Source: Candidatus Anstonellales archaeon (GTDB lineage: Archaea > Micrarchaeota > Micrarchaeia > Anstonellales > J096). Taken from it: a DNA stretch of 64,000 nucleotides. The DNA lies in the NCBI GenBank assembly GCA_038890745.1, contig JAWAFD010000002.1, positions 163,327-227,326 on the forward strand, given 5' to 3'. A program made the position numbers and the translations under genes. The notes under the pieces are model-generated. The model was given only the letters and a program-made list of their open reading frames with translations. It was not told where the DNA came from and ran no database searches. Positions 4,711-31,631 of the stretch are shown here, in pieces (position 1 is the stretch's first letter; every line of letters begins with the position of its first letter).

Positions 4711-5121
4711 TCATTTTGTTTTTGTTAGCTTCTCTTTTATTTTTTCCGCGACTTTGAGAATATGGTTTAAATCCTTATACACCCTCTCAAGAATTTCTTC
4801 ATCGAGCGCATGATAGCGATGTGCAACCATATTCCTAAACCCAACTGCGTTTATCATTATTTTTAAGTCTCTATCATCAATTACCCCGATCCTTCTCATG
4901 CTCTCAAATACTTCAAAGTATGTTGAAGCATATTGAGATGGGGTTTTTGCTAAGAAGAGTTCTGCAAGTTCTATTGTATAATTTACAACCTGAAATAATT
5001 CCATAGTTAACGCGGACGTTAAAATCTGATCAAACCTATTCTCTTTCCATTTACCATATACCTTTTTTGAGATTTCGGCGTGATATTTTATATCTTTCAT
5101 TATCATATCTATTTTACTCAT
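4711..5121 (-). CDS. hepT: HepT-like HEPN/DUF86 toxin
   Basis: 136 aa with the R-x4-H motif in GFRNMVAHRY. A 4-nt overlap (ATGA-type coupling) links it to the upstream nucleotidyltransferase gene. Confidence 0.8.
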   Translation of the reverse strand: MSKIDMIMKDIKYHAEISKKVYGKWKENRFDQILTSALTMELFQVVNYTIELAELFLAKTPSQYASTYFEVFESMRRIGVIDDRDLKIMINAVGFRNMVAHRYHALDEEILERVYKDLNHILKVAEKIKEKLTKTK

Positions 5122-5486
5122 TCTTTGGCCCCCTGAACCCGGTATAATCTTTCCATATCATGATACTCCATCATGCTTTTTGCTATAATCTCCTGAAGTT
5201 TTTTCATGTTTCTAACAAAAACAAGCCTACCTTCTTTTATCACACTAAACTTTATCTGTGGTGGGAATTTGTTAAAGACACCAACATCGATCGTTTCATT
5301 CTTATACCCATATATTTCCAAAACATGTTCTGGGTCTGTTTTTTTAAGCACAACGGCGACGTCAACATCCGATAGAGGATGCATTTTTTTTGTTTCATAT
5401 GAGCCAAAAACAAAAATGGCGAGAACATTATTTATTTTTTTGAGCCTGCTTATAATGTTTGCCAATTTTTCATCCAGCTTTTTCAT
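5118..5486 (-). CDS. mntA: MntA-like minimal nucleotidyltransferase antitoxin
   Basis: 122 aa. IFVFGSYETKKMHPLSDVDVAVVL fits the G-S-x(9-10)-D-x-D minimal NTase motif. It sits immediately upstream of the DUF86 gene. Confidence 0.8.
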   Translation of the reverse strand: MKKLDEKLANIISRLKKINNVLAIFVFGSYETKKMHPLSDVDVAVVLKKTDPEHVLEIYGYKNETIDVGVFNKFPPQIKFSVIKEGRLVFVRNMKKLQEIIAKSMMEYHDMERLYRVQGAKE

Positions 5487-5871: not shown

Positions 5872-7695
5872 CTATATTGCAATCCCGGAGATCAGCAGAT
5901 TGAGTAAAGCCCATGAGGCAATGAGCGAAACAATATACACGGTGAAGCCCACAAAGATGTTTTTTGCAATAGTGTAAGCCCTTCCAACCTCATCATACCC
6001 CTGTTTTATTCCGCTCTCAAACATCCCCAGTATTATGAGCATCTCCAAAACATAAAATCCAATGATAAACTGCATATCAACAGATGAGAAAGCAGCACCC
6101 CCAAAGGAGAATATTCCAAACCCCTCAGCCCCGTGCGCCTTTTTGCTCATCACAATTATGAATTTTGCGATCAGGTCCCCAAATGCGACAGCCACGCCTC
6201 CTACAAGCGGCATGATGAATGTGCTCATCATGGAAACAGTGTTCGTTATTTCAGAAAGCATTTCGTTTACCCGCGCGTTGATTTCAAAGGTTCTGTCCAA
6301 ATACTCTGCTGCTTTTATTGTTGATGCTGCTGTCTGCCTTGGACCTTTCTCTGCACTTTCCGAAATCACGTAAAGAATGTCCGAGATCATCACGCTAGGG
6401 TACTCCTTTATTACACCCTCCCTTCCGAATATCGCTCCCTTCAAGGTTTTTCCTTCAATCTTAATTTTCTCTAAAATTTTCCCCCACAGATCCACAGCAC
6501 CCTTCCTTACTGTTCCTATCTTCCTTCCTTCCTCAACCATCATAGCGATTGCATTCTCTATCGGAATGTTCTGCCTTAGCACAACAGCCAGCTCCTTCAA
6601 GCTTGCCCTGAAATCCTTCTCCATCTCTGAGATTTTGCTCCTTATGTCCATAAGCCCATACGACCTTCCGAAATAATATATCCCTATTGCTATCGCGGCG
6701 ATGTACACGATAAATGCGCTTTCAAAAAGCCCAAAATTTAAGGCAATAACACCTAGCAAAAATGGAACAGAAATAATGAGAAATATTGCTGTCGCCGCAA
6801 TCGGGCTGAAAACATTTTCCCCAATCCTTATCCCTCCATACTTTTCCCTAATTTCTGGTGTGATATGAACGGCAAGCGTTCCTGGTCTTTTTGCCAAAAC
6901 AGTAGTGACATAATAGTATGCAACAAGCGGGATGGCTAAGTTAAAAACTATGAACAAAAGCGAGGGAGGAATCTCTCTCCCAAGGAATATCCCGATAATT
7001 GGAATCATTATCAGAAGCATCATCGGAAATAGCATAAGAAAAGAGAAGATAAGCTTGACCGGGTTGGATATTGCTTCAACATACCTCTGCATCTTTTCAT
7101 TCGTAGCTGAAAGCTGCAGACTTAGTCCTTTGTCTATTATATCCTCAAACCTAGCGCTCTGCTTTTCGCTTATGCTCATCTTCAAAAGCTCCAGCACTTT
7201 TATAAAAGTTTCATCTAGTTCTCTCAAAATTGAGGCGTGTTTGTCCAGCGCTCTCTCAACATTACTCTCCTCCCTCATCTCCACAGACCAGCTCACCTTC
7301 CTTAAGATATCACCCACGATTCCTTTTGCACTCTTTCCAGCAAACTTTACAGCGCCCTCTAAATTTCTGTTTATCCTGATGTATATTGCTAAAAGTAATG
7401 ATGCAAAAATTATTTCGTTCTGCGCTTCCATCACTACCTGCGTCGCTTCAACGCTTGCCTGGTTATATTTGTAATAAAATCCAAAAACAGCAATGAGAAT
7501 GGAAAGGAACGGAAACCCAAGGATGAGAAAAACAGGAAAAGAAACCACAAACGAAAATATCGCAAAAAGAACCGCTCCGTTCACAACCGCTTTAGGTTTT
7601 TTACCAATAATCCTGCACTCCCTTTCTATATTCTCTTCAAAAATAGTAAGCATCGGAGGAAGTTTTTCCCCAATAGCATAGAAAACATCCATCAA
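5872..7695 (-). CDS. polytopic membrane platform protein of a type IV pilus/archaellum-like system (FlaJ/TadC/PilC-like)
   Basis: 607 aa with two blocks of multiple TM helices separated by soluble helical segments. Its start overlaps the stop of the ATPase gene by 4 nt. The assignment rests on topology and synteny, not on motifs. Confidence 0.7.
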   Translation of the reverse strand: MMDVFYAIGEKLPPMLTIFEENIERECRIIGKKPKAVVNGAVLFAIFSFVVSFPVFLILGFPFLSILIAVFGFYYKYNQASVEATQVVMEAQNEIIFASLLLAIYIRINRNLEGAVKFAGKSAKGIVGDILRKVSWSVEMREESNVERALDKHASILRELDETFIKVLELLKMSISEKQSARFEDIIDKGLSLQLSATNEKMQRYVEAISNPVKLIFSFLMLFPMMLLIMIPIIGIFLGREIPPSLLFIVFNLAIPLVAYYYVTTVLAKRPGTLAVHITPEIREKYGGIRIGENVFSPIAATAIFLIISVPFLLGVIALNFGLFESAFIVYIAAIAIGIYYFGRSYGLMDIRSKISEMEKDFRASLKELAVVLRQNIPIENAIAMMVEEGRKIGTVRKGAVDLWGKILEKIKIEGKTLKGAIFGREGVIKEYPSVMISDILYVISESAEKGPRQTAASTIKAAEYLDRTFEINARVNEMLSEITNTVSMMSTFIMPLVGGVAVAFGDLIAKFIIVMSKKAHGAEGFGIFSFGGAAFSSVDMQFIIGFYVLEMLIILGMFESGIKQGYDEVGRAYTIAKNIFVGFTVYIVSLIASWALLNLLISGIAI

Positions 7696-9848
7696 TACAC
7701 CCTCTTCATTTCTTCAAGGCACCATGCCTTCCATCTCTCAAATACCCTAGTTGCATCAACGCTTCCATGCTCCACTCTTTCTTCCTCCATTATTTTGTGC
7801 AGCGCAGAATTGCTCGCTACAACAAAAGGCGCTTCGAGGATCTTTTCGTTTTTATAGCTAGCCGCAAAATCAACAAGCGCTCTTTTAACCTTTGCCCTAA
7901 GTTTTATGTTGTCCATGATTTTTGAATAATCCGTCCACCCAGCAACCCTTTCGCCTATTGCTTTCAAAACCTCACTCTCTCCATTCAGCAGCACGTCCGT
8001 TGGTACAAGACTGTCCTTGTCTGCATCATAAACCATTAAATCCGCAAACCCCATCTCCTCAATCGGGTCCGATTTCCAGTGCTTCCTTACCTCAGTAATT
8101 CTCGTCACCCTTCTGAGTTTTTCCAATCCATCTGGTGTTTTTATCGGATTCGCGATCACGATCAAATCTATTGCTTTAAATGATGTTGGCGGGACTTCCA
8201 GATCATTTACAACCCTGTCAAAAATCCCATATGGGCTTTCACCATGTATGGTTCCTGCAACAACATTCGCAAGCGCACCTACTCTCATAGCCTCATAAAG
8301 CGCCTTTGCTTCTTTGCTTCTCACCTCACCAACAATCAGGCATGAATCTCCGAGCCTCAACGCTGCTTTAATCCCATCCTCAGCGCTCATCTCACTTCCT
8401 TCAACGCTCAGCGCGCTCTTTACTTTGAGCGATAGGATGTCATACCCGAGCTCCTCCATTACCTTTACAGGAAGCTCGAGCGTGTCTTCTATTGTTACTA
8501 TCCTGTATTTTTTCATTATCTCAAGCATGCTCGCTCCAAGGAGGGAGGTTTTTCCTGCGCTTCTAGACCCTCCAAAAAGAATGCACCTTCCATTATCTAT
8601 CGCGAAGCTGAGAAGGCCTGCGGCCATTTCGTTCATCATCCCTTCCCTTACAAAAAGCGGAAATGTCCATGGTTTTTCTCTATGTTTTCTTATTGCAAAC
8701 GCAAGCCCACCGGTGCTAAGCGGTTTATGAACAGAAGCAATCCTTGCACTCAGGCCCGGAATGTTTATAGTTGTATCGAGAACAGGGTTTGCCTGGTCCA
8801 GAGGTCTACCACTCTCCAACTTAAGCTTTGTCGCCCAGTTCACAACCTCCTCAACATTCGGAATGATATTGCTGTCGCACTCCTCCCATTTCTCATGGAA
8901 TATTGCTATTCCCCTTTCACCTGGATTTATGTTTACATCCTGAACATATGGGTCGTGCAGAATAGATTCTATAACACCAAACCCGATCGTCGCCCTTGTG
9001 ATAATGCTCGCTAATTTATCCGCATCCTCAACCTTCAAATTCAATTTCAGCTCCTCTATTTTTGCTATCACCCTATCCCTTACATACTCATATATCGCTT
9101 CCCTTGCTTCTGTGCTTTCAAGTATCTCAGCTCTTGGGTCCTTTATAACCTCTTCCCTTATTTCACTCACAAGCCTGTGCTCCATGTCCCCAAGCATGAT
9201 CTCCGGCGGAGTCAGGTGATAATAATATTTTATTTCATTCCCCATTTTGAATATCCTAACCTTTGCCCCATCCCTCAGCTCATACTCATCCACAAGCTTT
9301 CCATTCGCTGGAAATGTTGTTCTGAACCTAGTTAGAGAAAAAGAAGGCCTTTCTGTTGGCGAGAAAATTTGCAGGTATATCCCTCGGTCCCCTGCTTTGT
9401 ATCCAACGAGCTCCTTCTGCACTTTCTTTATTATGTCTGTCTCTTCCAATCTTTGCAGGGTTGGGTCTATGAGCTCATCAATAATCCATTTTTTGCAGGA
9501 GCAGTTTCCTATCACAACCCTTTGCTTAAGCCTCTTCATGAAAACATAAACCCCTACTGGGTCGTCTGCAATCTCCCTTATTTTATTGAAAAATACTCTT
9601 ATATCTTCACATGAGCAGTCCTTTGGTGGTGTCTTTCCCTTCAGCTCTGCTGAAAGAGTCTTTATCTTCCTTGCTAAGTCCTTTATCAACCGTGTATCCT
9701 CCAAACCATACTCCACAATCGTTTTTCCTTCTATGATTATTTTTGTTGCCCCAAAATCCTTTGCAATCCTATCTACAACCTCTCCGAACAATCTGGCGTC
9801 CTTTTCTATGGTTTTTCCGCTTTCCGTTGCTTTTATTACTATCTCCAT
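7692..9848 (-). CDS. type II/IV secretion-family ATPase (FlaI/PilB/VirB11-like) with a long N-terminal extension
   Basis: 718 aa. Walker A is FGGSRSAGKTSLLGA, Walker B-like is DSCLIVGEVR, and the His-box-like segment is VAGTIHGESP. AGGTGGGGG lies just upstream of the ATG. Confidence 0.9.
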   Translation of the reverse strand: MEIVIKATESGKTIEKDARLFGEVVDRIAKDFGATKIIIEGKTIVEYGLEDTRLIKDLARKIKTLSAELKGKTPPKDCSCEDIRVFFNKIREIADDPVGVYVFMKRLKQRVVIGNCSCKKWIIDELIDPTLQRLEETDIIKKVQKELVGYKAGDRGIYLQIFSPTERPSFSLTRFRTTFPANGKLVDEYELRDGAKVRIFKMGNEIKYYYHLTPPEIMLGDMEHRLVSEIREEVIKDPRAEILESTEAREAIYEYVRDRVIAKIEELKLNLKVEDADKLASIITRATIGFGVIESILHDPYVQDVNINPGERGIAIFHEKWEECDSNIIPNVEEVVNWATKLKLESGRPLDQANPVLDTTINIPGLSARIASVHKPLSTGGLAFAIRKHREKPWTFPLFVREGMMNEMAAGLLSFAIDNGRCILFGGSRSAGKTSLLGASMLEIMKKYRIVTIEDTLELPVKVMEELGYDILSLKVKSALSVEGSEMSAEDGIKAALRLGDSCLIVGEVRSKEAKALYEAMRVGALANVVAGTIHGESPYGIFDRVVNDLEVPPTSFKAIDLIVIANPIKTPDGLEKLRRVTRITEVRKHWKSDPIEEMGFADLMVYDADKDSLVPTDVLLNGESEVLKAIGERVAGWTDYSKIMDNIKLRAKVKRALVDFAASYKNEKILEAPFVVASNSALHKIMEEERVEHGSVDATRVFERWKAWCLEEMKRVY

Positions 9849-9909: not shown

Positions 9910-11415
9910 TTAAATGTTTCTAAGTAAAGACAGGGCATCATTGATGTCATTCAATAAGTTTCCGTTGCTTTCTCTTGATGCGATTTCAAGAAGAGTAATG
10001 ATGCGTTCTTTGGTATTTTCATCCATCTCTGAAACTTCTGTTGAGAATACATACCCGCACAGGATTCTTGGATAATGGATGCTCGATAGTGGCACATTTT
10101 CCATAAGATTTTCAAAGAGCTTTTTTGCTTCCTTCCTTCTTTCCATATCTTTTAAAGCATACGCCATTATAGTATTTGCCAGGACATATGTTTCATCTGT
10201 GTATACTTTGAATGGATAGGTCTCTAAGAATTTTGAGATTTCTTGGACTACAGCCCATCTTTTTTCCTTCTGTTTTCTTAGAGCCTCCATTTTGATCAAA
10301 AATATTTTGGGATTTGTTTTTATATGGTGCGGTGCTTTAGATACTACATCCTCAACATCCTTGAACCTGTTTAGCAAGTAATAAAGCGAGCAGATCGTAG
10401 TGTAAGTTACAACATCAGCAATCCTATTCTTCACAGCTTCCTCAAACACCTCCCTAGCCTCCTCTACCATTCCCCTCTTCCCATACGCATCAATCATAGT
10501 GTTATAGGTTACAACATTAGCAATCCCCTTCTTCACAGCTTCCTCAAACACCTCCCTAGCCTCCTCTACTCTTCCATTCTTCCCATACGCATCAATCATA
10601 GCAGTGTAAGTTACAACATCAGCAATCCTATTCTTCACAGCTTCCTCAAACACCTCCCTAGCCTCTTCTACTCTTCCATTCTTCCCATACGCATCAATCA
10701 TAGCAGTGTAAGTTACAACATCAGCAATCCTATTCTTCACAGCTTCCTCAAACACCTCCCTAGCCTCCTCTACTCTTCCATTCTTCCCATACGCATCAAT
10801 CATAGTGTTATAAGTTACAACATCAGCAATCCTATTCTTCACAGCTTCCTCAAACACCTCCCTAGCCTCCTCTACTCTTCCATTCTTCCCATACGCATCA
10901 ATCATAGCAGTGTAAGTTACAACATCAGCAATCCTATTCTTCACAGCTTCCTCAAACACCTCCCTAGCCTCCTCTACCATTCCCCTCTTCCCATACGCAT
11001 CAATCATAGAATTATAGGTTACAACATCAGCAATCCTATTCTTCACAGCTTCCTCAAACACCTCCCTAGCCTCCTCTACCATTCCCCTCTTCCCATACGC
11101 ATCAATCATAGAATTATAGGTTACAACATTAGCAATCCTATTCTCCACAGCTTCCTCAAACACCTCCCTAGCCAAGTCGATGTTGATTTTGCCTAAGAGT
11201 TTTATTTTGTAGGTTATTGCAAAAACATTGTTTGGATTTGATTTGAGAATCTCATCAATTTTATTCAATGCTTCATAGATTCTGCCCTGTTTTTCAAGGT
11301 TCTTCGCTTCTCGCATGAGTCGTTTTGGGTTTTTGTTTTCATCGAGCGGGTCAGGCCACTGACCCCGACCGTGATGGCTATGCCTTGCATTTCCTGGCTT
11401 TCTGAATCCCCTCAT
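9910..11415 (-). CDS. helical-repeat protein with seven near-identical 34-aa PPR-like (TPR-length) repeats
   Basis: The repeat is VVTYN(S/T)MIDAYGK(R/N)G(M/R)VEEAREVFEEAVKNRIA(D/N). The likely start is ATG at 11415 (MRGFRKPGNARH..), because the ORF-track extension to 11484 runs through an AT-rich promoter-like region. Confidence 0.75.
   Translation of the reverse strand: MRGFRKPGNARHSHHGRGQWPDPLDENKNPKRLMREAKNLEKQGRIYEALNKIDEILKSNPNNVFAITYKIKLLGKINIDLAREVFEEAVENRIANVVTYNSMIDAYGKRGMVEEAREVFEEAVKNRIADVVTYNSMIDAYGKRGMVEEAREVFEEAVKNRIADVVTYTAMIDAYGKNGRVEEAREVFEEAVKNRIADVVTYNTMIDAYGKNGRVEEAREVFEEAVKNRIADVVTYTAMIDAYGKNGRVEEAREVFEEAVKNRIADVVTYTAMIDAYGKNGRVEEAREVFEEAVKKGIANVVTYNTMIDAYGKRGMVEEAREVFEEAVKNRIADVVTYTTICSLYYLLNRFKDVEDVVSKAPHHIKTNPKIFLIKMEALRKQKEKRWAVVQEISKFLETYPFKVYTDETYVLANTIMAYALKDMERRKEAKKLFENLMENVPLSSIHYPRILCGYVFSTEVSEMDENTKERIITLLEIASRESNGNLLNDINDALSLLRNI
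10423..11136. repeat. tandem array, 7 x 102 bp, near-identical at the DNA level (degenerate units flank it on both sides)
   Basis: The string TCACAGCTTCCTCAAACACCTCCCTAGCCTC recurs with a 102-bp period (e.g. 10431, 10533, ...). Unit boundaries were verified by back-translation (IAD codons at 10420-10422). Confidence 0.9.
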
Positions 11416-11473
11416 GATTTTATTGTGTATAAAAATGTTTAAAAATATATATACTTTTTTCCCATTAAAAAGA

Positions 11474-11482: not shown

Positions 11483-11510
11483 ACTTTCTACTACAGCAAT
11501 AGGGGGAGAG

Positions 11511-12563
11511 ATGAAAATAATAAAAAACAATGTGGTTCCGTACTATTCTTCTTACGATCAGGATAGAGTACCCATCAGCGCATGTATTGCTATGATCAGA
11601 GAAATAAGAAAAAGAGGGTATGATGTTGAGATAAGCGAAATAAGCAAAAAAGCGGTCGAGAGGATAGCATCGTGGGATAGATGGAAGTGGTACGAAGAAG
11701 CGGCCGCGTTAGGTTTTTTTTATATTCAGAAAAAAGGAGTTTTTCAAATTTACGACGAGATTTATAAGAAAATAAAAGAGCGATATAAAGAAAAAAGAAA
11801 ATTTATGAATATAGTAGGTTTGTATTGGTTAAAATATTTTTATTCCAAGTCTGAGGATGGCTATATTCTAAAACCAAGAGAGGAGGTAATCGAGATCCTG
11901 AGGTCTTTACCATGCAATGTTTATGATGATATAACAAAAAGAGTCTTTCCAGAAACAGAGAAGCAAAAAAAACTGAGAGAAATCATTGCAGAGTATCTGG
12001 CTTTGGGAAACCGATACATTCCTTTACACAAGCTTTTTGAGATGTTTGAAGCAGCTGGTTATTCTGGTTCCACCAATTCCCGTCTCCATATCCGCAAGGT
12101 TATACGCGGTATTAGTAGTAGAATTGGCACGGAAATTTTGATACTTAACAAAAATGAAGAGTTAAGGTTCTTACTTGAAAGGGAGCTTGCTGAATACTCA
12201 AAAAAATTTGGCGCGAAAATTACAAAGAGAGAACTTATGAAGCTTTCCGAGAGAGTAGGATACTCAAGGTATACCTTTCAAAAGGCGTCCTATACCCAGC
12301 TTAAAGCCCTCTGCCCCATGATCGGTGAAAAAATAATCCTTGTCAGCCCGGAGGTAAGACGAAAAGAAATCATCCATCTTTTTGAAACCGGGAAAATCAC
12401 TCCTCAGGAAGCTGCAGAGATTCTGTCCACAATATTCCTATTCAATGAAAATAGAATGAAAATTCTTGAGTATCTGCTTGAGTATAAAAGGTTAAACCGT
12501 GCGTTTCCCCGTCATCCCACATCAATGGAAAGAAAAATAATTCATTCTGTTTTGGTGTCATAA
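11511..12563 (+). CDS. hypothetical protein (350 aa, helical, K/E/R-rich)
   Basis: Long ORF with an SD and a TATA-like box. No motif recognised. Confidence 0.65.
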   Translation: MKIIKNNVVPYYSSYDQDRVPISACIAMIREIRKRGYDVEISEISKKAVERIASWDRWKWYEEAAALGFFYIQKKGVFQIYDEIYKKIKERYKEKRKFMNIVGLYWLKYFYSKSEDGYILKPREEVIEILRSLPCNVYDDITKRVFPETEKQKKLREIIAEYLALGNRYIPLHKLFEMFEAAGYSGSTNSRLHIRKVIRGISSRIGTEILILNKNEELRFLLERELAEYSKKFGAKITKRELMKLSERVGYSRYTFQKASYTQLKALCPMIGEKIILVSPEVRRKEIIHLFETGKITPQEAAEILSTIFLFNENRMKILEYLLEYKRLNRAFPRHPTSMERKIIHSVLVS

Positions 12564-12617
12564 TCGGATAAGATATGTTTTAATATCTTTCTGCGCATAA
12601 TATTGTTCGGTGAGCAA

Positions 12618-12986
12618 ATGGCCGATCTGTTTTCATCTTCGAAGAAATCAAAGTATGAAGACCCATACCTTAGTTTGAAAACAACTGTTGAACTTCTACT
12701 CGACAGGATAGCAAGCTGCGAAAAAAGGATAGAGGCGATAGATGAGAAGCAGGAGCTTGTCTTCCGTGAGCTTTCAAGGCTTTCAGAAGAAGTTGATGCT
12801 TCAAAGAGGCAGAGCGCAAGCAAGCATGATGAGCTAAACGGGAAGTTAAAAACGCTCGGCCTGGAATACGCAAACCTAAAATCCACGATTCTGGAGCTTA
12901 AAAGGGAGCTTAACGAGAAAGCGAAAATAGATGACCTTGCGGAGATAAAAAACTATATAAGTATAAAAAAGGGTGAGAGAGAATGA
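12618..12986 (+). CDS. coiled-coil protein
   Basis: ATG at 12618 (MADLFSSSKK..). The sequence is heptad-rich, and its stop overlaps the next gene's start by 4 nt. Confidence 0.6.
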   Translation: MADLFSSSKKSKYEDPYLSLKTTVELLLDRIASCEKRIEAIDEKQELVFRELSRLSEEVDASKRQSASKHDELNGKLKTLGLEYANLKSTILELKRELNEKAKIDDLAEIKNYISIKKGERE

Positions 12987-14023
12987 TAGAATTAATTCTT
13001 GCAGGTGTTGCGGTTATAGGTGTTGGGTATGCGCTTTATAAAATATCAGAAATAGATGCAGTTACAAAAAAGATTGCCATGCCTGTAAATGAAATGGAGC
13101 AACTTGAAAAAAGGCTCATAAAATTAAGGGAGGACTTCAACAACCTTCTTGCTGAATACGGGGATGTAGGCCAGGTTTCCGTGAGGCTCAAGCGTCTTGA
13201 GGATAAGCAGCTGGAGATAAGCGCGGAGTTTAAGGAGTTTGATGGAAAGCTGAACTCTTTTGGGGATGAGTTTTCAAAAGTTGAGAAGATGTTCGAGAAT
13301 TTTGGTGATAGGCAGGGCGAGGCAGAGGGAAGGCTCTCTGAGCTTGAGGCTGACATCGCTCAGCTCAGCCAGATAGCAAAAAGACTCACTGCATTTGAGG
13401 AAAGCGTGATGAGGCTTGAGGCTTTCAACGCTCAGCTTTCGGACGAAGCGAAAAGAATAGACTCGGATATGAGAAACATGAAGGACAAGCTGGAAGAGAT
13501 GAAATTTATAGTTGGCAGCTTGCAATCCTTTAAGAAAGAGCTGAGCGAATCCACAACAGCAATCGGGAACAAAACCGGTGAGCTTGAGAGAAGGATGCAG
13601 AAAATAGAAGCATTCTTTGAATACGCAAAGGATATCGAGAGAAGCGTCCGGGCTATGAGTGCGAAGTTTGATGCATTCGACAAATCAAAGAGTTTGATGT
13701 TTGACCTTCTCACAAAAACAAGGGAGGAGGTAAAGGAGATAAGCGAGCAGATGAAATCCGTGCGCGCCCCGGTTGTTTACAAGATTCTGAAAAACATAGA
13801 AAGCGATGTTTCAAAACACGAGAGGTCTGTCAATGACCTCTCCTATGAAGTTTCCCTCCTAAGGGCAAGGCTTCAGGAGATGCAGGCAAAATACTCAGAA
13901 CTCGTGAGCCCTGATGCATTCCAACTGCTCACATACGAAAAAGACATCCAGCGCCTAAACAGCAGGCTTGATGAAATCCAGCAGACGCTCGCCAATATAG
14001 AAGAGGATGCGAAAGAGCTGTAA
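12983..14023 (+). CDS. N-terminally membrane-anchored coiled-coil protein
   Basis: MIELILAGVAVIGVGYALYKI is a TM helix, followed by ~320 aa of E/K/L-rich coiled coil. Confidence 0.7.
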   Translation: MIELILAGVAVIGVGYALYKISEIDAVTKKIAMPVNEMEQLEKRLIKLREDFNNLLAEYGDVGQVSVRLKRLEDKQLEISAEFKEFDGKLNSFGDEFSKVEKMFENFGDRQGEAEGRLSELEADIAQLSQIAKRLTAFEESVMRLEAFNAQLSDEAKRIDSDMRNMKDKLEEMKFIVGSLQSFKKELSESTTAIGNKTGELERRMQKIEAFFEYAKDIERSVRAMSAKFDAFDKSKSLMFDLLTKTREEVKEISEQMKSVRAPVVYKILKNIESDVSKHERSVNDLSYEVSLLRARLQEMQAKYSELVSPDAFQLLTYEKDIQRLNSRLDEIQQTLANIEEDAKEL

Positions 14024-14613: not shown

Positions 14614-15153
14614 ATGCCAGAAGCCGGAAAGGAGTGCGAGTTATACCGGCTAATTGTTATGCGGTATAAGGAGCTAATAGAAAAAAGCGAGGATAAAACG
14701 ATAACTGAAGTACGTGCTATGATTTCGCCGTACAATGAATTTATACAGAAAAAGAAAGCTGAACTTCTTTCAGATTTCCCTTCGTATGATCCAGAAAAGG
14801 ACTTTTTCTCAATTGCGCAGAAAGCAATAGAATACATAAAAGGTATAGAAAATATAGAAATGCCGGTGAAATTCTGGTTGAGTTTTGAGGAGTTGGATAG
14901 GCTTAGGGCCGGTAATGTTTACAACCAATCCATCCTTCTTGCATCCCTTTTCCGCGCTCTTGATGGAAAGGATGTTCTTGTGTACGCAACAGAAAAAGGG
15001 AATTTCTATGTTGGCTTTTCCTGGCAGGGATTAAGGTATGCCGTCAACCCGGAAAACGGAGCGATGTTCATAGGTGAGGATGTCTCAAAACTTTTTCAGG
15101 AAGACAGGCCGATGTATGCATTTTCTGATTTGGTTTTTGAATCATTTGATTAA
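14614..15153 (+). CDS. hypothetical protein, possibly an inactivated transglutaminase-like fold
   Basis: GNVYNQSILLASLFRALDGKDVLVYATEKGNFYVGFSWQGLRYAVNPENG follows the spacing of the transglutaminase-core pattern (G-x-C..f..l.Ra.G...R.v.......HaW.e......dP), but the Cys/His/Asp positions are replaced. Confidence 0.4.
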   Translation: MPEAGKECELYRLIVMRYKELIEKSEDKTITEVRAMISPYNEFIQKKKAELLSDFPSYDPEKDFFSIAQKAIEYIKGIENIEMPVKFWLSFEELDRLRAGNVYNQSILLASLFRALDGKDVLVYATEKGNFYVGFSWQGLRYAVNPENGAMFIGEDVSKLFQEDRPMYAFSDLVFESFD

Positions 15154-15575
15154 AGATCTGAAAATATCTCTTCGGGCTCTTTTCTGAATTTTATTCCTTT
15201 ATCGATTATGATATCTTTCCTTTTTACCGCCCTCTCAAATACTTTTTTGTATTTCTCGAAATTGTTTTTTCCTACTAGTACAACGCCATCCTTTAAGCAT
15301 TCCCAAACAATCGGGTTGTACTGCTTGAGTAAGGATTCAAATTCTTTTGTGGTGTAGCAAATCGGCTCGATAGAAGTTTTTCCCTTCCAAAAGTCCATTA
15401 CAGAAGCTATTCTTTCAAAGAAATTCTGCCCAAAATCATCCGAAACGAAGAGAATGTCATAATCGCTTGAGATAAGATTGTCCCCCCTTGCCCTAGACCC
15501 AAACAAAACAGCAAAATTCAGTTTATATTTTTTATCAACTTTGTTTACGAACTCTATAATTTTTCTTTCGACCAT
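15150..15575 (-). CDS. minimal nucleotidyltransferase (MNT) domain protein
   Basis: FAVLFGSRARGDNLISSDYDILFV fits G-S-x10-D-x-D. It overlaps the upstream HEPN gene. Confidence 0.8.
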   Translation of the reverse strand: MVERKIIEFVNKVDKKYKLNFAVLFGSRARGDNLISSDYDILFVSDDFGQNFFERIASVMDFWKGKTSIEPICYTTKEFESLLKQYNPIVWECLKDGVVLVGKNNFEKYKKVFERAVKRKDIIIDKGIKFRKEPEEIFSDL

Positions 15576-15931
15576 TCAAGCACCTTTTTTGCTTTTTTCA
15601 ACAAATTTTTTGCGGTTTCTTCTGTGTATATCTCAAAGGGTGCCCCTCCGATCGCATCCGGGTAGCGGGATGTTATGTAATGCGGGGTTAGGTCTCTGCA
15701 TGCAAGCGATATATCCAATGGCGCATTCAATAGTTCAGCATACTCGCGGAGGTTGTGGGTCTTTGGAGGCATCTCTTTTAGTTTTTCGTATGCAACTGCT
15801 TTGAGTGCTTTTTCAGCAACCTGATGGGAAAGGAAAGAAACAAGGTCATATGCCTCCTCCTTCAAAAGTTTTTCAGCATTATGTAAATCAACCTCGGCCT
15901 GCTTTATCAGGTATTCGCTCTCCTTTCTCAT
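15554..15931 (-). CDS. HEPN domain protein
   Basis: 125 aa, helical. ..KTHNLREYAELL.. and ..LTPHYITSRYPDA.. match the classical HEPN (PF05168-type) signature. It is paired with the MNT gene. Confidence 0.75.
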   Translation of the reverse strand: MRKESEYLIKQAEVDLHNAEKLLKEEAYDLVSFLSHQVAEKALKAVAYEKLKEMPPKTHNLREYAELLNAPLDISLACRDLTPHYITSRYPDAIGGAPFEIYTEETAKNLLKKAKKVLEWSKEKL

Positions 15932-19780: not shown

Positions 19781-19828
19781 AAAAAACAAAAACCAATTTT
19801 TATAAACTTTCCCTTCAAATTGTTAGCG

Positions 19829-21514
19829 ATGAAAAGATTGATCTTGCTTTTGTTTCTCTCATCCATAGTTTTTTCTGCTTATGGAAATATAGTTGACAAT
19901 TCAAACATAATCCGCAATGTTACCTCTTCAATCTCATACAAGGTTTATGCTGATACATTTGGCGTTAACCCTGATTTTGCGCTCATGCTCTGTGGGGCAA
20001 GCGGGTATGCGGGTGCTGTGTATTCCGCGAATGTTTCGGGCGCTCCTGTTTACATAACCATAAGCAAAAACCTGAGTGCAGGGGCAAACTCAACACTAGT
20101 CTACACCTCTCAAAATGTTAACTCAACATGCAACCGCACACCGGTTGATCAGTTTGCATTTTCTCAGTTTCAAGACATCACCCGAACCCCAAGGGTGTAT
20201 GTTTCTGCCTTTCCCGGCAGAATTCACATTCTTTACTCTTCAAGCGTAGATGGCTCAAACCCTGAATTTGCAAAGGTTAATTATTCAAACGGCTGGCTGA
20301 AGGGCGACTACTCTGTTACAAGAATTTTTGATGAGAACATCGCCCGAGTAAACGCAACGGTGAGTACGATTACTTTTGAAACAGATATGGGAACAATTAC
20401 TCAGAGCGCAAGCGACCCGGAGTGGGGTCTAAACTCCTCAACCGGAAGGAGCATGTTGATTGCTTTGTGCGAGGATGACTACGGTGATGTGTGCAGCGAT
20501 GCAGTGGTAATAAACTCTTCCTCTCAATTCCCAGCACGCTTAAACCTCAACCAGCCCATAGGGGATACCTCTCACTATGACAGATATGTTGTTGTGGATG
20601 GCTTAGGCTATCCCATATGCATCGGTGCAGACCTTTATGTTTCCATCTCCACCCCAGGCTCTCTTGGATATGGAGAATCCGGAAATGTAAGTATTACGAT
20701 TACAAACATCGGAAATGTCCGGGTTACAACAGATTTCGTGATCAACCTTTCTGTTTCAGGGCCCGGAGGGCACTACAATTATACCGAATGGACAATTACA
20801 GAAACCCTACTTCCAGGCCAGAGCACAACAAGAAACTATACTTTCTTTGCAACCGGCCAGAGTGGAACATATACATTTAGAACTTTTGTTGATACGACGA
20901 ATGTAATAAGCGAGTGCAACGAAGGGAACAACAACGCAACCGGGACAATTACCGTTGTTCCGAGAAGAGTTCTTCATGTTAAAATAGATGACAACGAAAC
21001 ATACTATTTCCCTCAATGGGGATATCCTTACAATGTAACCATGTGGGTTACGGACAGCGACAACAACACCCTTACCGGATTAACCTTCAAAATTACAGAA
21101 ACAAACGGCTTAAATCCATTTGTCCCAACTCAACTCTGGAACAGCTCCGGAACAGTGGTTGGGCTTAAGAGCTATTCCATAGGGGAATTCGGTTCAAACT
21201 CTTCTGGTTATGCCATGTTCACAATCATCCCAACCTGCAACAAGCTCTACACAACCTACATAAGCGAAAATGTGGATGTTTATGTAGGCAACTATTCCAT
21301 TACTGTGAATGTATACCAAGGCGGCTCTCCTGTTCCGCTCTATTTCAACGGCTCAACAGTGTATGACCACCCACTCTTTGTTTCAAACACCTCGTGCTCT
21401 GTTCCTCCATGGACAAACAACAAGGAGCTGGTGAATAAAGACAGGTACGTTCTTCCAATATACGACTGGCTGTATGAAGTTTATTCAATAATGAAAAGAA
21501 TAGCAAACCCGTGA
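19829..21514 (+). CDS. secreted surface protein with a CARDB-like domain
   Basis: The signal peptide is MKRLILLLFLSSIVFSA. ..VDTTNVISECNEGNNNATGTITVV is the typical CARDB C-terminal motif (E-x-N-E-x-N-N). It is sequon-rich. Confidence 0.7.
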   Translation: MKRLILLLFLSSIVFSAYGNIVDNSNIIRNVTSSISYKVYADTFGVNPDFALMLCGASGYAGAVYSANVSGAPVYITISKNLSAGANSTLVYTSQNVNSTCNRTPVDQFAFSQFQDITRTPRVYVSAFPGRIHILYSSSVDGSNPEFAKVNYSNGWLKGDYSVTRIFDENIARVNATVSTITFETDMGTITQSASDPEWGLNSSTGRSMLIALCEDDYGDVCSDAVVINSSSQFPARLNLNQPIGDTSHYDRYVVVDGLGYPICIGADLYVSISTPGSLGYGESGNVSITITNIGNVRVTTDFVINLSVSGPGGHYNYTEWTITETLLPGQSTTRNYTFFATGQSGTYTFRTFVDTTNVISECNEGNNNATGTITVVPRRVLHVKIDDNETYYFPQWGYPYNVTMWVTDSDNNTLTGLTFKITETNGLNPFVPTQLWNSSGTVVGLKSYSIGEFGSNSSGYAMFTIIPTCNKLYTTYISENVDVYVGNYSITVNVYQGGSPVPLYFNGSTVYDHPLFVSNTSCSVPPWTNNKELVNKDRYVLPIYDWLYEVYSIMKRIANP

Positions 21515-24743: not shown

Positions 24744-24777
24744 TTAATCTTTTAAACAGTTCTGTACATACTTGGTT

Positions 24778-27597
24778 ATGCGGGTGGGCATGAGAATAGA
24801 ATTCATCGTCCTGTCTTTACTTGTTCTTTTAGCCAGTACGTATGCTATCTCAGACTGTCAACAAATAACCGGAGAAAACCTTTCTCTTACTCTGGATAAC
24901 AACATAGACGCACAGGGGAATGATTGTTTTTACATACAAGGAATAAACATAACCCTGGATTGCAGAAACTACCTTATTTATAACGCTTCCACTGCAATTT
25001 TAGTAAACAACTCCCACATGATAAATATATCCAGGTGTAAAATAGAAAATTCAACAAATGGTATCATTCTTCAAGTCCAGACCCCAACAGGCTATCCCGA
25101 ATACCAAGATCAGTTAGTAAGAAGAAATACTTCGGCCATTCTAACCAGCATTACAATAAACAATGTAACAAATGGAATTCTCATGAACAGAACCCATCAG
25201 AATACGATAAGGTTCGCAAACATAAGAAATTCCCAGAATGCCATTTCCTTATTCTATTCTTATGCAAACATTATAGAAAATTCAACAATTCAAAACAACC
25301 AGCTTGGTATTTTCATATATGATGCTGCCGCCAACGGCTCGCAGGCAAACGCAACCCCAATACTCGCAAAAGCAAAAGGTAAAGGAGTTAAAAGCGTGGA
25401 CCCAGAGCCAGTAAACGACACTACTGTAATCCGAGGAAAGTACGGAAGCATAGTAAGGCACTGTACTTTTCAGAACAATTCTATAGGAATAGTTTTGAAT
25501 CAAACAGCAAACAATTCATTCTACAACAATCTATTCAACAACACCCAAAATGTTCTTTCAGATTCGTCTTCCAGCAATTTTGTTAATTACTGGAACTCTT
25601 CCTATGACTGCTCTCAAAGAAGCATAATAAACGGAATGTGCAGAGGAGGGAACTATTGGAATGATTATTATGGGTATGATGATGGAACTGGTTCTCCTCC
25701 TCATGATGTTTATTTTGATGATATTGGCGATACCCTTCTTCCATACATTCCAAACGGAGAAATTTCTGGGGATGAGCTTCCACTAACAAAAAACCTCCCA
25801 CCAGATTGGGTTGCGTATTGTAGACAGATTACCCAGCCAGGAACATATACACAAAAAAGAAACATCTATGGTGTTATCTCATCCTCAAACAAGAAGTGCA
25901 TAGAGGTTTTGGCTGACAACGTTACCCTCAACTGCGCCGGCTTCAACATCACAGATAACACGACCTATACAGATAGTTATGGAATTTACATTTCAAACTA
26001 CAACAATTTAACAGTTGCAAACTGTACTGTCCTTAATTACACAACCGGCTATTATGACAGAAATTCTTTCTATGGTGCCCTTTACAGAAATAACTTCTCA
26101 AACGACAGATACAATCTTTATTTTGATGTGGACACCTCGCCCTACCCAAACCAAACAGAACCATTCCTTAAAACGATCACAACAGACAACTATGTTTATG
26201 GAAGAAAAGTATATTACTTCATCAACGGCCGAACTCCTGATGGCTACACTTGGCCTCCTCCTTATGATGCAGGATTTGTTGCACTGGTTAATGGCCAGAA
26301 TATTGTTGCAACCGGCTACGATCTATACAACAACAGTCCAGAGATGATTTTTGTAAATATCTCCAACCTTGAAATAAAAGAGAACAAAATATGGAAATCC
26401 GGCGTTGGTGCATACGTTCTTTTCAGCGAGAATGTTTATGTAAAAAACAACAATTTCACAAACAACAGCCTATACGAGATTTTCATTACCTACTCAAATT
26501 ACACAAACATAACCAAAAACCTTTTCTACAACACTTCAGGATATTCAATACTACTTTACAGATGCGACAATAACGATATTTTCCTAAACAATGGAACAAA
26601 CTCAGGGTATCTAATTTCAGTTGCGTATGCAAACAACAGTTTAGCTCACGATAATTATGCAAACTATACGTCAGGCGGAATATGGTTCTCATATTCTACG
26701 TACAACAAAATATATTCAAATGAGCTCTGGCTTGTGTGCGGAGGGCAGGCAGTAATAGGAAGCTCAAACGTTAATTACACTTTTGTCTTTTCTAATACCG
26801 GAAGCAGCCGATGCACATCCACACATCAATTTATATATATAGTTGGCACCAACCCGTCCCCTTCATGGGCGTACTACGGTGAGGTATATAACAATACAAT
26901 CAAAAGATATCCCGGCGGAGTTACGTGGAATTCTGGGATTCATATAAACCGGGCGGGGTATTTAGTTGTCCATGATAATTACATTGAGGATGTACGGTAT
27001 AGTGGTAATAGCGTTGGCATTCAGTTTCCATACGGAGCCGGTCATATTACTTATAACAACACAGTGATAAATGCCAGCAAATGTATGAGGGCGTTCATCT
27101 CAAATTCCGAAACATCAAACAATACGTTCCGATACTGCGATATTGGTATAACGCTTGAATTTGCTACAGGCAATAGAATATACAATAACATGATACTGGA
27201 TAGCATTACATATGGTTATGATGATTATATCAATGGCAATTGGTGGAGCCTTGGTCATATAAACTGCTCCCGTGGGCCGAATATAATCGGTGGTCCATGT
27301 TGGGGAGGAAACTTTTATGGAAACTATTCCGGATGCGATTCTAATGGCGATGGGATAGGAGAGACGTCCTATCCAATAAATGGTAGTGCTTATGCCGTAG
27401 ACCCATACCCTCTTACAAACACCCCATGCAAATCTCAACCTCCACCCATTAAAGAACCAACCGAAATCAAACCCATTCAACCATCCCCAAAGCCTCTTCC
27501 CGCTCCGTCTGAGAAGAAAGACAGAAAACAGAACTCAACCTCTATTTCTGTAAATTCTACTGAAATTTCTTTACCAAGTTCCATCCCCATACACTAA
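24778..27597 (+). CDS. secreted right-handed parallel beta-helix (NosD/CASH/PbH1-type) surface protein
   Basis: It has a hydrophobic N-terminus and many ~22-aa Asn-rich rungs. It carries two cap motifs, GGNYWNDYYGYDDGTGSPPHDVYFDDIGDTLLPY and GGNFYGNYSGCDSNGDGIGETSYP, and a Pro-rich tail. Sequons are very dense. Confidence 0.8.
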   Translation: MRVGMRIEFIVLSLLVLLASTYAISDCQQITGENLSLTLDNNIDAQGNDCFYIQGINITLDCRNYLIYNASTAILVNNSHMINISRCKIENSTNGIILQVQTPTGYPEYQDQLVRRNTSAILTSITINNVTNGILMNRTHQNTIRFANIRNSQNAISLFYSYANIIENSTIQNNQLGIFIYDAAANGSQANATPILAKAKGKGVKSVDPEPVNDTTVIRGKYGSIVRHCTFQNNSIGIVLNQTANNSFYNNLFNNTQNVLSDSSSSNFVNYWNSSYDCSQRSIINGMCRGGNYWNDYYGYDDGTGSPPHDVYFDDIGDTLLPYIPNGEISGDELPLTKNLPPDWVAYCRQITQPGTYTQKRNIYGVISSSNKKCIEVLADNVTLNCAGFNITDNTTYTDSYGIYISNYNNLTVANCTVLNYTTGYYDRNSFYGALYRNNFSNDRYNLYFDVDTSPYPNQTEPFLKTITTDNYVYGRKVYYFINGRTPDGYTWPPPYDAGFVALVNGQNIVATGYDLYNNSPEMIFVNISNLEIKENKIWKSGVGAYVLFSENVYVKNNNFTNNSLYEIFITYSNYTNITKNLFYNTSGYSILLYRCDNNDIFLNNGTNSGYLISVAYANNSLAHDNYANYTSGGIWFSYSTYNKIYSNELWLVCGGQAVIGSSNVNYTFVFSNTGSSRCTSTHQFIYIVGTNPSPSWAYYGEVYNNTIKRYPGGVTWNSGIHINRAGYLVVHDNYIEDVRYSGNSVGIQFPYGAGHITYNNTVINASKCMRAFISNSETSNNTFRYCDIGITLEFATGNRIYNNMILDSITYGYDDYINGNWWSLGHINCSRGPNIIGGPCWGGNFYGNYSGCDSNGDGIGETSYPINGSAYAVDPYPLTNTPCKSQPPPIKEPTEIKPIQPSPKPLPAPSEKKDRKQNSTSISVNSTEISLPSSIPIH

Positions 27598-29873: not shown

Positions 29874-31631
29874 ATGAATGCGAAAGTGCTATTAGTTATA
29901 TTAGCGTTGGTTCTGACGCTGGTTAACCCTACGCAATATGTAACCAACTCGAAGGATTGGAGGGATGTCTACCTGACCCTGCATTTTGCAGACCTTTCCG
30001 GAGAACAATCATTTTTTATCCGGAATGAGCTGCACGGAACAAAGGTTCTTCCTTACTTTATAAGCAAAAGCGAACCGGTAGTAATAGTTGAATCAGAAAC
30101 AGAACCATACGTACCAGATTACGAATCCTACCTAAGAACCCTCGGATTTAAAAATGTAACAACATTAAAGACCCAACACCCATACATTCTTCAGGAACAA
30201 TTTTTAGAAATGCTAAAAAATAACAGCGTTCCTTTAACAGGTTTTGTTCTTATTGATGATGCTTATGGATATGATGCGGTAAGCGTTGCCCAGTATGCTT
30301 TCAAATACAAAAAATGGGTTTTGTTCACAACCAAAGAAAACAGGAACAGGATTTCATCTCTTTTGGAAGCAAACCCTGGCTATTCCATTCTTTTCTACGG
30401 ACACATGCGAAGAGAAATCGCAGATACCCTTTCAAAATTTAATGTTGAAAAAATAGACAACCAGAGCAGGTTCAAAAATAATATGGAGCTTGCGGAAAGG
30501 ATGGTTAAGACAATAAATAGCCAGCAGATTCTTCTTACAAGCGGCGAGTACATAGAGCACGAGATCATGACCGGTGGGGATGGGAACGAAGTAATTCTTT
30601 TTGTTTCTTCAGACCGCTACCCGGAGGATATAATAAATTTCATACGAAAGCACAACATAAAATATGTTATCGTAGTTGGAAATGAGCTCATAAACACAGC
30701 AAGGGAGGTTAGGGAAGCGATGGGAGGAGAGATTACAGTAATAGCAAAGTATGGAATGGGTTTTGTGGGAGTTGCAGAACTGCAGGGCCAGATATATGCG
30801 TTGGACCTTTTCTACCTACCAAAATATCAGTTTAACCTTACTCCCATATCCGCAGTGTACAATCCTACTGCAAAAGAGCTTTACATCCGATTCAAAAACA
30901 ACGGAAATGTAGGGAATTATTTCTACACTTCTGCGCCCATTGTTTTTGAGGATAGAACGATCACAACTGTAATAGATAAAGAAAACCAATACCTAGAGCC
31001 AGGTGATGAGAAGGTAATAGTCTACAGCGTGGATCTAACAGATTATATCAACAAAAAAATGTATGCACACCTTTATACTAAATATGGTGAGTCGCCTTAT
31101 GATATGATGTATTATGTGCTTGAACCGGGAGCGGTGAGACCACCGTATAAACTACCGATTCTTGTTCAAGAATTTGTTGATAATTCAGAGCTTGAGATAA
31201 CAGATGGTTGGTACGATGACTTCTCAAAAGAATACATAATTCAAGTAAGCAACGTAGGTCCTGTTGATGCATACGCTAGAGGAGAGCTTAGAAATATTAT
31301 AATAGATGGTATTCCAACAACAAAAATCCAGAACGGCACGACTTTTATAAGAAAAGGAGAGACCTCTTCCATTCCAATAAAATTAGAGTTAACGGAAGAG
31401 GATAAAGAGGTCAATAAGGTTGTCCATACCGTAGTCTACTACGGTGAAAAAGAGGATACTTTGATAAAAAGAGCAGAGAAGGATATTGAGCTAAAAGGAA
31501 ATCCATGCATCCCGTCCATATTGTTGATAGTACTGCTGTTGATAGCTCTTATCATCGGCTACTATGTATGGAGAAAGAGAAAGGGGCATCATAGGGCAAA
31601 GGCTCACCACGAACACGCAGAAAGTAAGTAG
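29874..31631 (+). CDS. secreted protein with a C-terminal TM anchor and basic/His-rich tail; N-terminal part with three alpha/beta repeats, C-terminal beta-sandwich-like region
   Basis: The signal peptide is MNAKVLLVILALVLTLVNP. The C-terminus is IPSILLIVLLLIALIIGYYVWRKRKGHHRAKAHHEHAESK. The repeated pattern (..DWRDVYLTLHFADLSG.., ..GYDAVSVAQYAFKYKKWVLFT.., ..ILFVSSDRYPEDIINFIRKHNIKYVIVVGN..) is reminiscent of cell-wall-binding-repeat-2 domains; that assignment is a low-confidence inference. Confidence 0.65.
   Translation: MNAKVLLVILALVLTLVNPTQYVTNSKDWRDVYLTLHFADLSGEQSFFIRNELHGTKVLPYFISKSEPVVIVESETEPYVPDYESYLRTLGFKNVTTLKTQHPYILQEQFLEMLKNNSVPLTGFVLIDDAYGYDAVSVAQYAFKYKKWVLFTTKENRNRISSLLEANPGYSILFYGHMRREIADTLSKFNVEKIDNQSRFKNNMELAERMVKTINSQQILLTSGEYIEHEIMTGGDGNEVILFVSSDRYPEDIINFIRKHNIKYVIVVGNELINTAREVREAMGGEITVIAKYGMGFVGVAELQGQIYALDLFYLPKYQFNLTPISAVYNPTAKELYIRFKNNGNVGNYFYTSAPIVFEDRTITTVIDKENQYLEPGDEKVIVYSVDLTDYINKKMYAHLYTKYGESPYDMMYYVLEPGAVRPPYKLPILVQEFVDNSELEITDGWYDDFSKEYIIQVSNVGPVDAYARGELRNIIIDGIPTTKIQNGTTFIRKGETSSIPIKLELTEEDKEVNKVVHTVVYYGEKEDTLIKRAEKDIELKGNPCIPSILLIVLLLIALIIGYYVWRKRKGHHRAKAHHEHAESK

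Follow-up and report, generated by a model that had tools for sequence, protein, structure and literature searches.

Does an archaeon encode a genuine pentatricopeptide repeat (PPR) protein, and would such a protein read RNA? The question is raised by one gene in a 64,000-nt stretch (the window, below) of contig JAWAFD010000002.1, assembly GCA_038890745.1, from a Candidatus Anstonellales archaeon, Anstonellales being an order of Micrarchaeia, DPANN archaea. PPR proteins are described as eukaryote-specific organellar RNA binders, the few bacterial examples being put down to horizontal gene transfer (PMC3858423, PMC3858433), and in 2024 UniProt held 49 archaeal PPR entries against 227,968 eukaryotic ones (PMC11514114). 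An original prediction, made from the letters alone, had read the gene product as seven near-identical PPR-like units of 34 amino acids (aa), with variation concentrated at the positions that specify the RNA base. In our analysis it is almost certainly a genuine archaeal PPR protein of the P type, and what is new here is a PPR protein with a 34-aa unit, in what appears to be a previously undescribed Micrarchaeota family, with a designer-like array that was very probably amplified recently. The parts of the gene and its product are as follows.

9910..11415, minus strand: complete coding sequence of the PPR protein, 501 aa plus stop (list of open reading frames, ORFs; Pfam, NCBIfam and PDB matches)
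11438..11454, minus strand: TATA-like A/T-rich box (GTATATATATTTTTAAA), ~32 nt 5' of the ATG (read from the sequence)
11341..11415, minus strand: basic disordered N-terminal tail, aa 1-25, beginning MRGFRKPGNARHSHHGRGQ (predicted local distance difference test score, pLDDT, <50 for residues 1-25)
11128..11340, minus strand: two degenerate helical hairpins capping the array, aa 26-96 (model helices 30-42/46-59 and 64-77/79-91)
10414..11127, minus strand: seven canonical 34-aa PPR units, aa 97-334 (Tandem Repeats Finder, translation, PF01535)
11026-11127, 10924-11025, 10822-10923 and 10720-10821, minus strand: units 1-4
10618-10719, 10516-10617 and 10414-10515, minus strand: units 5-7
10312..10413, minus strand: degenerate eighth PPR unit (VVTYTTICSLYY...KTN), aa 335-368 (VVT...YY kept in all orthologues)
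9913..10311, minus strand: all-helical C-terminal domain, aa 369-501, with motifs ALRKQKK, AYxLKD and YPRILCGYVF (family alignment A1)

The ATG at 11415 is the likely translation start, because the TATA-like box lies ~32 nt upstream of it and orthologues open with a similar basic tail; a second possible start, the GTG at 11484, was rated less likely. The box is a putative archaeal promoter, which would give an mRNA with a short leader or none. Scans for sigma-70 promoters and intrinsic terminators, bacterial signals unsuited to archaea, found nothing. The basic N-terminus noted in the original prediction is borne out: its isoelectric point (pI) is 10.8 over aa 1-30, it is disordered in the model and the alignment shows equivalent basic G/R/K-rich tails in orthologues. 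The capping hairpins give a weak TPR_2 match, and the second of them ends in AREVFEEAVENRIAN, already inside the DNA repeat, the Tandem Repeats Finder array beginning at 11173. At the other end, the degenerate eighth unit is the first element of the family-defining C-terminal region, and the domain past it matched no Pfam family, with tetratricopeptide repeat (TPR) matches below threshold only.

A PPR protein by profile and predicted structure

The whole protein scored 262.7 bits with PF01535 (cut-off 25, seven stretches, E = 2.9e-81), 250.6 with PPR_1, 245.9 with PPR_2 and 242.1 with TIGR00756, PPR_3 also being above threshold, whilst the best whole-protein TPR score was 106 bits (TPR_14). 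Because repeat scores add up, a single isolated unit was scanned as well, it reached 45.0 bits with PF01535 (cut-off 25) and missed every TPR cut-off, the TPR models giving 14.5-16.8 bits against cut-offs of 23.5-27.8 (best TPR_1, 16.8 bits, cut-off 27.8). On both scales the protein is PPR rather than TPR or SEL1, as had been predicted, and PPR profiles outscore HAT as well. Tested against the 34-aa TPR hallmark pattern (W4-L7-G8-Y11-A20-F24-A27-P32), the unit fits in length and at Y11, A20, F24 and A27, and shares with TPR proteins the helix-turn-helix build and the packing residues A20, F24 and A27; Y4, M7, I8 and I32 do not fit. The canonical units have neither G8 (I8 instead) nor P32, and carry the PPR-specific V2, N/T5, K13 and a last residue D or N.

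Structural comparison, with PPR10 and designer PPRs (dPPRs) in view, led to the same assignment. In a PDB sequence search the top ~20 matches were designer PPRs (5i9h, dPPR-U8G2, E = 8e-161), PPR10 and pTAC2, designed TPRs first appearing at ~E = 1e-16, more than 100 orders of magnitude behind the designer PPRs. An AlphaFold model on the family alignment (pLDDT 90.1, predicted template modelling score 0.73) forms a continuous solenoid of helical hairpins, in which helix A spans positions 1-13 of the unit and helix B positions 17-29. The top ~30 Foldseek matches of the model were nearly all PPR proteins (designer, natural, PPR10), led by RNA-bound designer PPRs and PPR10, with TPR, HAT and other solenoids below, and the predicted superhelix matched RNA-bound dPPR10 (6een) with a template modelling (TM) score of 0.74 and a root-mean-square deviation of 4.4 Å.

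Designer PPRs (dPPR, cPPR; 5i9h, 5i9f, 6een, 5orq, 4wsl) likewise consist of near-identical tandem P-type units, with 40-53% identity to ours over the array, and have in common with it V2, N/T5, K13, D/N as the last residue and an equal net charge per unit. They are engineered, with 35-aa units and PPR10-derived caps, whereas the archaeal protein is natural, and has 34-aa units and family-specific ends. Eighteen of 35 aligned positions match the designer-PPR consensus, in line with the predicted match to about half of the P-type consensus by a unit one residue shorter. The single one-residue deletion lies in the loop between helix B and helix A, where a single A stands in place of KP and Pro34 is thereby missing. 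Every unit keeps to a period of exactly 34 aa (102 nt), against the 35 residues and conserved Pro34 of the standard motif. Motif length varies among recognised PPR subclasses, and for that reason we take the 34-aa unit as a variant and not as grounds for exclusion from PPR.

A Micrarchaeota family and its origin

The gene is archaeal, its flanking genes and its named orthologues all being from Micrarchaeota. Contigs of GCA_038891555.1 and two Logan assemblies carry the downstream ATPase and the upstream genes with 100% identity, and GCA_038894355.1 carries them with 99.8%; partial products there bear the name 'pentatricopeptide repeat-containing protein, partial [Candidatus Anstonellales archaeon]'. 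A full-length search returned mostly plant PPRs, together with three short proteins, P0024, P0066 and P0113, that share the non-repeat N- and C-terminal regions. Aligned over the C-terminal region (A1), these show 39-46% identity to the window protein and 39 invariant columns; the region is ~160 aa long in the family and carries YY...AP..I, ALRKQKK, AYxLKD and, at the extreme C-terminus, YPRILCGYVF.

The A1 profile found six relatives in a word-indexed search and, by exhaustive HMMER, 139 clusters (at 50% identity) at E<=1e-3, 87 of them at E<=1e-10, the window ORF itself scoring 337.9 bits against the family profile. A GTDB scan with a tighter alignment block gave at least two loci and a metagenome scan six. 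Proteins of the family are 190-900 aa long, and in nearly all of them the domain stands at the extreme C-terminus. Most members are unnamed metagenome proteins, and every named one is from Micrarchaeota (Anstonellales, Bilamarchaeaceae, Burarchaeum, 'Micrarchaeota archaeon').

Longer members carry degenerate PPR-like units; in ten that were scanned PF01535 always passed its cut-off and in six it led the Pfam matches, followed closely by TPR_19 and TPR_14. A hidden Markov model of the canonical unit picked out 216 similar segments, spread over 68 of 81 members. Forty-two of these are near-complete, and in them position 5 is N, S or T in 74%, position 13 is K or R in 57%, and the last residue, wherever there is no gap, is D or N. 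The family architecture begins with a basic disordered N-tail and two capping hairpins, continues with a variable central run of 34-aa PPR units and closes with a conserved helical C-terminal domain. We found no literature linking PPRs with Micrarchaeota or DPANN, and a study of 163 Micrarchaeota metagenome-assembled genomes (MAGs) makes no mention of PPR or TPR.

Could the gene nevertheless have come recently from a plant or another eukaryote, by acquisition or as contamination, and not represent an archaeal gene family at all? Its highest-scoring database matches are plant P-class and PPR-SMR proteins (PPR10; GUN1- and pTAC2-like, the best over full length), with which it shares the helix A pattern YNxxIDxYGKxG and canonical code residues, its unit comes as close to a consensus as do designer PPRs, which were built on plant sequences, and the literature treats prokaryotic PPRs as horizontal gene transfer (HGT) from eukaryotes (PMC3858423, PMC3858433). 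Against this, the gene stands among archaeal genes on contigs identical across several assemblies, its GC content resembles that of its surroundings, and the same non-PPR ends are found in orthologues from several orders and families of Micrarchaeota, the whole family comprising ~87 clusters at 50% identity. The protein has an archaeal host and neither an organellar targeting peptide nor an Smr domain, its repeats are homogenised where those of plants are degenerate, and its 34-aa period is also that of one Burkholderiaceae protein and of two PPR-Smr-like proteins from metagenomes, whereas all eukaryotic matches have 35-aa units. Retrieved eukaryotic units reach at most 59% identity (20/34) and the best bacterial units 62%. 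We regard such a eukaryotic source as very improbable, a recent plant transfer or contamination being ruled out by the breadth of the family and its archaeal-specific domains.

Bacterial PPRs are regarded as eukaryote-derived effectors of host-associated bacteria such as Legionella and Ralstonia (PMC3858423, PMC3858433). The P0005 cluster among our matches includes 'PPR repeat protein [Legionella steelei]', and P0031 and P0079 are PPR-Smr-like metagenome proteins with a 34-aa period. The closest bacterial analogue of the 34-aa unit is P0198 (GCA_041443025.1, a Burkholderiaceae bacterium MAG), a 1798-aa protein with 17 diverse 34-aa PPR units at its N-terminus, encoded among ABC/TRAP transporter and two-component-system genes, a typical bacterial neighbourhood; it may be a eukaryote-like effector. 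The region after its units looks helicase- and cysteine-protease-like, judged by eye only. P0198, P0031 and P0079 share with the archaeal family the 34-aa period, the Pro-less 'A(D/N)VVTY' junction (further, 'A(N/D)VVTYN') and a 'MIDAxGKxG' helix A, with best units at 59-62% identity. Bacterial PPR proteins (Legionella PPR and PPR-SMR, the 1798-aa Burkholderiaceae protein, Roseateles, Ralstonia) are prokaryotic too, but have Smr or helicase/protease-like C-terminal regions and not the Micrarchaeota C-terminal domain. As 62% and 59% are too close, unit identity does not discriminate between origins. An ancient transfer in either direction, into or out of a Micrarchaeota ancestor, may lie behind the family, as may a prokaryotic 34-aa lineage.

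Variation and expansion of the array

Tandem Repeats Finder reported one array (10403-11173, period 102 nt, 7.6 copies, 94% matches, no indels, score 1311), which translates as exactly seven 34-aa units with a degenerate unit before and the degenerate eighth after, so the predicted run of seven near-identical units (aa 97-334) stands. Units 1 and 2 are 100% identical in DNA, and the remaining unit pairs differ at 1-12 of 102 nt; 13 of the 102 sites vary among the seven units, 3-4 of them synonymous. In the protein (n=7) positions 5, 6, 14, 16, 30, 31 and 34 vary, those other than the code positions lying in turns and loops. The claim of variation at the specificity positions therefore holds in that position 5 and the last position do vary, but 'concentrated' overstated it: these are two of seven variable positions, the chance that both land among 7 of 34 under random placement is P = 0.037, which is suggestive only, and the variable sites are linked in blocks. 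The blocks define two parental unit types, N(S/T)...KRGM and TA...KNGR, together with mosaics of them, the signature of unequal crossing-over or gene conversion, which reshuffles code residues with no selection on specificity required. D and N at the last position would also be ordinary helix N-cap residues.

Differences between strains fall in the same places. Over 5.8 kb the 99.8%-identical L002 strain shows 13 mismatches, six of which cluster in 113 nt of array (odds ratio 41, Fisher p = 1.4e-7). These six coincide exactly with inter-unit polymorphic sites (unit nt 9, 90, 91, 100), and one of them turns the final D of unit 7 into N. Plant Restorer-of-fertility-like (RFL) PPR arrays change rapidly by recombination between repeats and paralogues, code positions included. 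The archaeal array is likewise recombining with code-position variation; here, by contrast, the gene is single-copy within the window and not part of a clustered multigene family, variable sites are few, and gene conversion confounds any signal of selection.

Canonical units number 0 in P0123 and P0124, 1 in P0024 and P0113, 2 in P0066, 3 in P0080, 4 in the Burarchaeum locus L008 and 7 in the window. Because complete orthologues have only 0-4, the seven-unit array is very probably a recent expansion. In the explanation we favour, the central run would have been amplified in this lineage from 1-3 units to about 7, by unequal recombination or gene conversion between the two unit types, and would still be reshuffled between strains.

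A tandem repeat of this kind is also where a short-read assembly may fail, and the seven-unit array could be partly an assembly product, a real PPR array whose unit number and order, and with them the heptamer UUGUGAU discussed below, were mis-resolved from short reads. Four contigs, two from NCBI MAGs and two from Logan, end at the edges of the array, 10499 lying inside unit 7 and 11146 lying 19 nt before unit 1, and it is because short-read assemblies break at both edges that the copy number is uncertain; the internal 646 nt, which hold unit count, order and heptamer reading, are known from the window's assembly alone. The exact 501-aa product is absent from database records, the relatives P0121, P0122 and P0125 are all partial and truncated inside repeats, and units 1 and 2 are identical, so that copy count is not fixable by reads shorter than ~200 nt. 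Set against these points, the array edges are independently confirmed at 100% identity, both unit types are present in the 95%-related P0122, synonymous sites distinguish the units (e.g. nt 54 in unit 5) and give a consistent path, other Micrarchaeota assemblies have arrays of several units too (4 in Burarchaeum, 3 in P0080), and collapse of an array would be likelier than inflation. Mis-resolution is a possibility we take seriously but consider unlikely. The database entries for the protein are all 'partial' because a coding tandem repeat fragments MAG assemblies. The four contigs that end exactly at the array edges (L001, L002, L009, L010) are independent short-read contigs from the same or near-identical populations.

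RNA-contact residues and predicted target

In structures of dPPRs with RNA, the bases are sandwiched between Val2 residues, and Lys13 is joined to the phosphate by a salt bridge, binding being lost in K13A; pyrimidines go with N at residue 5 and purines with S or T, and residue 35 is D or N (PMC4837458). All seven archaeal units carry V2, N/T5, K13 and D/N at position 34. As the HMMER alignment to dPPR is gapless over positions 1-32 and only one loop deletion follows, archaeal positions 5 and 34 correspond to PPR positions 5 and 35, and would line the groove. The array is acidic (pI 4.8), which is no argument against RNA binding, because the net charge per unit of -2 is identical to that of dPPR. 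Position 5 and the last residue read ND, ND, TD, ND, TD, TN and ND in units 1-7, and the earlier translation of these pairs into U-U-G-U-G-A-U applied the plant code correctly (PMC4837458).

The favoured explanation, to which as a whole (binding together with amplification of the array) we give a probability of roughly 0.55, is that the solenoid would bind single-stranded RNA along its concave face, one nucleotide per unit, with V2 residues sandwiching the bases, K13 contacting the phosphates, residues 5 and 34 reading the base and the basic tail contributing non-specific affinity. Should the plant code apply to this shorter unit as well, 5'-UUGUGAU-3' would be the sequence read by units 1-7, with C also tolerated by ND. 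Of the components, modular binding of single-stranded nucleic acid by the array is somewhat favoured, and UUGUGAU as the specific target is tentative and rather doubtful.

Several points weigh against this explanation. RNA binding is inferred, and AlphaFold was possibly biased by PPR structures in its training set. With 34 aa and no conserved Pro34, the unit could depart from the superhelical register that binding of one nucleotide per repeat requires. Canonical units number only 0-2 in most complete orthologues, therefore the ancestral function of the family cannot depend on a long code-reading array, and copy number and unit order come from one assembly, the others breaking at 10499 and 11146. 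TTGTGAT is not enriched in the window (14 found, 12.7 expected), which is an uninformative proxy for binding, no RNA gene was found in the 64 kb (no tRNA by ARAGORN, no rRNA or Rfam family at the gathering threshold), and gene neighbourhoods show no consistent RNA-related partner.

Zero tRNA or Rfam hits in 64 kb is somewhat sparse for a small, gene-dense archaeal genome. GUGAU resembles Shine-Dalgarno-type sequences, a likeness that we set aside as a coincidence of the look-elsewhere kind; the Shine-Dalgarno-like elements nearby read GGTGGGGG and GGGGGAG.

Were the favoured explanation true, and the family to bind RNA by the PPR code, modular PPR RNA recognition would extend to Archaea and the question of the motif's origin would be reopened; beside designer PPRs there would be a natural scaffold of consensus-like 34-aa units, perhaps from a geothermal habitat, and the range of 0-7 units across orthologues would be a tractable system for PPR array growth and specificity change. 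A protein that does not bind RNA would be a useful counter-example, a perfect PPR sequence signature without PPR function.

Gene neighbourhood and possible roles

Two genes follow the PPR gene on the same strand, and a related arrangement occurs in Burarchaeum.

7692..9848, minus strand: T2SSE (PilB/FlaI-type) ATPase, 718 aa, 61 nt downstream of the PPR gene (PF00437, 47 bits)
5872-7695, minus strand: 607-aa ORF, no Pfam match, 4-nt overlap with the ATPase end
L008 2816-9097 (Candidatus Burarchaeum sp., JAUSNF010000013.1): T2SSE ATPase, then a 525-aa TPR/PPR-like family paralogue
L008, continuing: 305-aa PPR protein (four 34-aa units, truncated C-domain), opposite-strand ORF, 586-aa TPR-AAA+ ATPase

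The window ATPase has an N-terminal extension of ~280 aa with no Pfam match, and together with the 607-aa ORF (5872-9848, minus strand) may form a type-IV-filament or secretion module of a divergent DPANN kind. In bacteria, type IV pilus or Tad systems are assisted by TPR proteins, and the solenoid could similarly be a protein-protein scaffold, binding peptide or protein in the manner of a TPR, perhaps as an accessory of this ATPase and the 607-aa protein. The PPR and ATPase genes run in the same direction, the 61-nt gap between them holds no T-run or other terminator-like site, and a Shine-Dalgarno-like element (GGTGGGGG) precedes the ATPase ATG. The distantly related Burarchaeum has a homologue of this ATPase (27% identity, E = 3e-22) directly upstream of two tandem family paralogues, the genes being separated by 25-46 nt. 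Over the whole protein the TPR scores pass their thresholds, since they add up over repeats, the flanking hairpins and many family members score about equally on TPR and PPR, and orthologues with 0-2 canonical units cannot read a long RNA.

The ATPase adjacency is, however, found in only 2 of about 8 independent contexts, the individual units miss all TPR cut-offs and are without the TPR hallmarks G8 and P32, all four RNA-contact residues are kept though protein binding does not require them, and a basic disordered tail would be typical of nucleic-acid binders. We consider a scaffold role unlikely, and treat the adjacency as a lead for a scaffold or secretion-linked role, not as a rule. A conserved operon was rejected: in an all-against-all comparison of ORFs from 11 loci, only the family gene was common to more than two. 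Pfam scans of the neighbours of orthologues gave Trm1/TruD, Pus10, a ribosomal-protein operon, amidohydrolase and acetyl-CoA-synthetase genes, unrelated archaeal housekeeping contexts; the tRNA-modification and ribosomal ones are not taken as evidence, because such genes are common in small genomes. The L008 locus as a whole is a cluster of solenoid proteins and ATPases.

Beyond the favoured explanation of RNA binding, the protein might be a natural, code-competent 'programmable' PPR system, in which the array expands, contracts and swaps specificity residues between strains and so would retarget an RNA or single-stranded DNA binder. We hold this to be improbable. The binder might serve in conflict or communication, whether with viruses or with the host archaeon, and might even be delivered to the host, an idea suggested by the ATPase adjacency in two lineages, the presence of bacterial PPRs in host-associated species and the lifestyle of DPANN archaea, which are largely host-dependent. 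If true, the 34-aa PPR may be a prokaryotic motif lineage and not merely a eukaryotic export, which would bear on the origin of PPRs.

The wider surroundings of the gene hold several other features. Divergent from it on the plus strand (11511-14023) lie three ORFs. One, of 350 aa, has neither a Pfam match nor an exact database record; the others, of 127 and 346 aa, are coiled-coil ORFs, the longer with many weak matches to coiled-coil families. Two pairs of nucleotidyltransferase (MNT/Polbeta) and HEPN/HepT genes, toxin-antitoxin-like, flank the PPR locus at 4711-5486 and 15150-15931, both on the minus strand. Farther along, a run of very large probable surface proteins occupies 19820-53408 on the plus strand, and includes the following.

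19820-21514, plus strand: CARDB protein
24772-27597, plus strand: 941-aa NosD/beta-helix protein
31631-43504, plus strand: 3957-aa protein with 14 beta-helix and 9 NosD stretches
43543-48234, plus strand: 1563-aa beta-helix protein
49212-53408, plus strand: 1398-aa protein, no Pfam match

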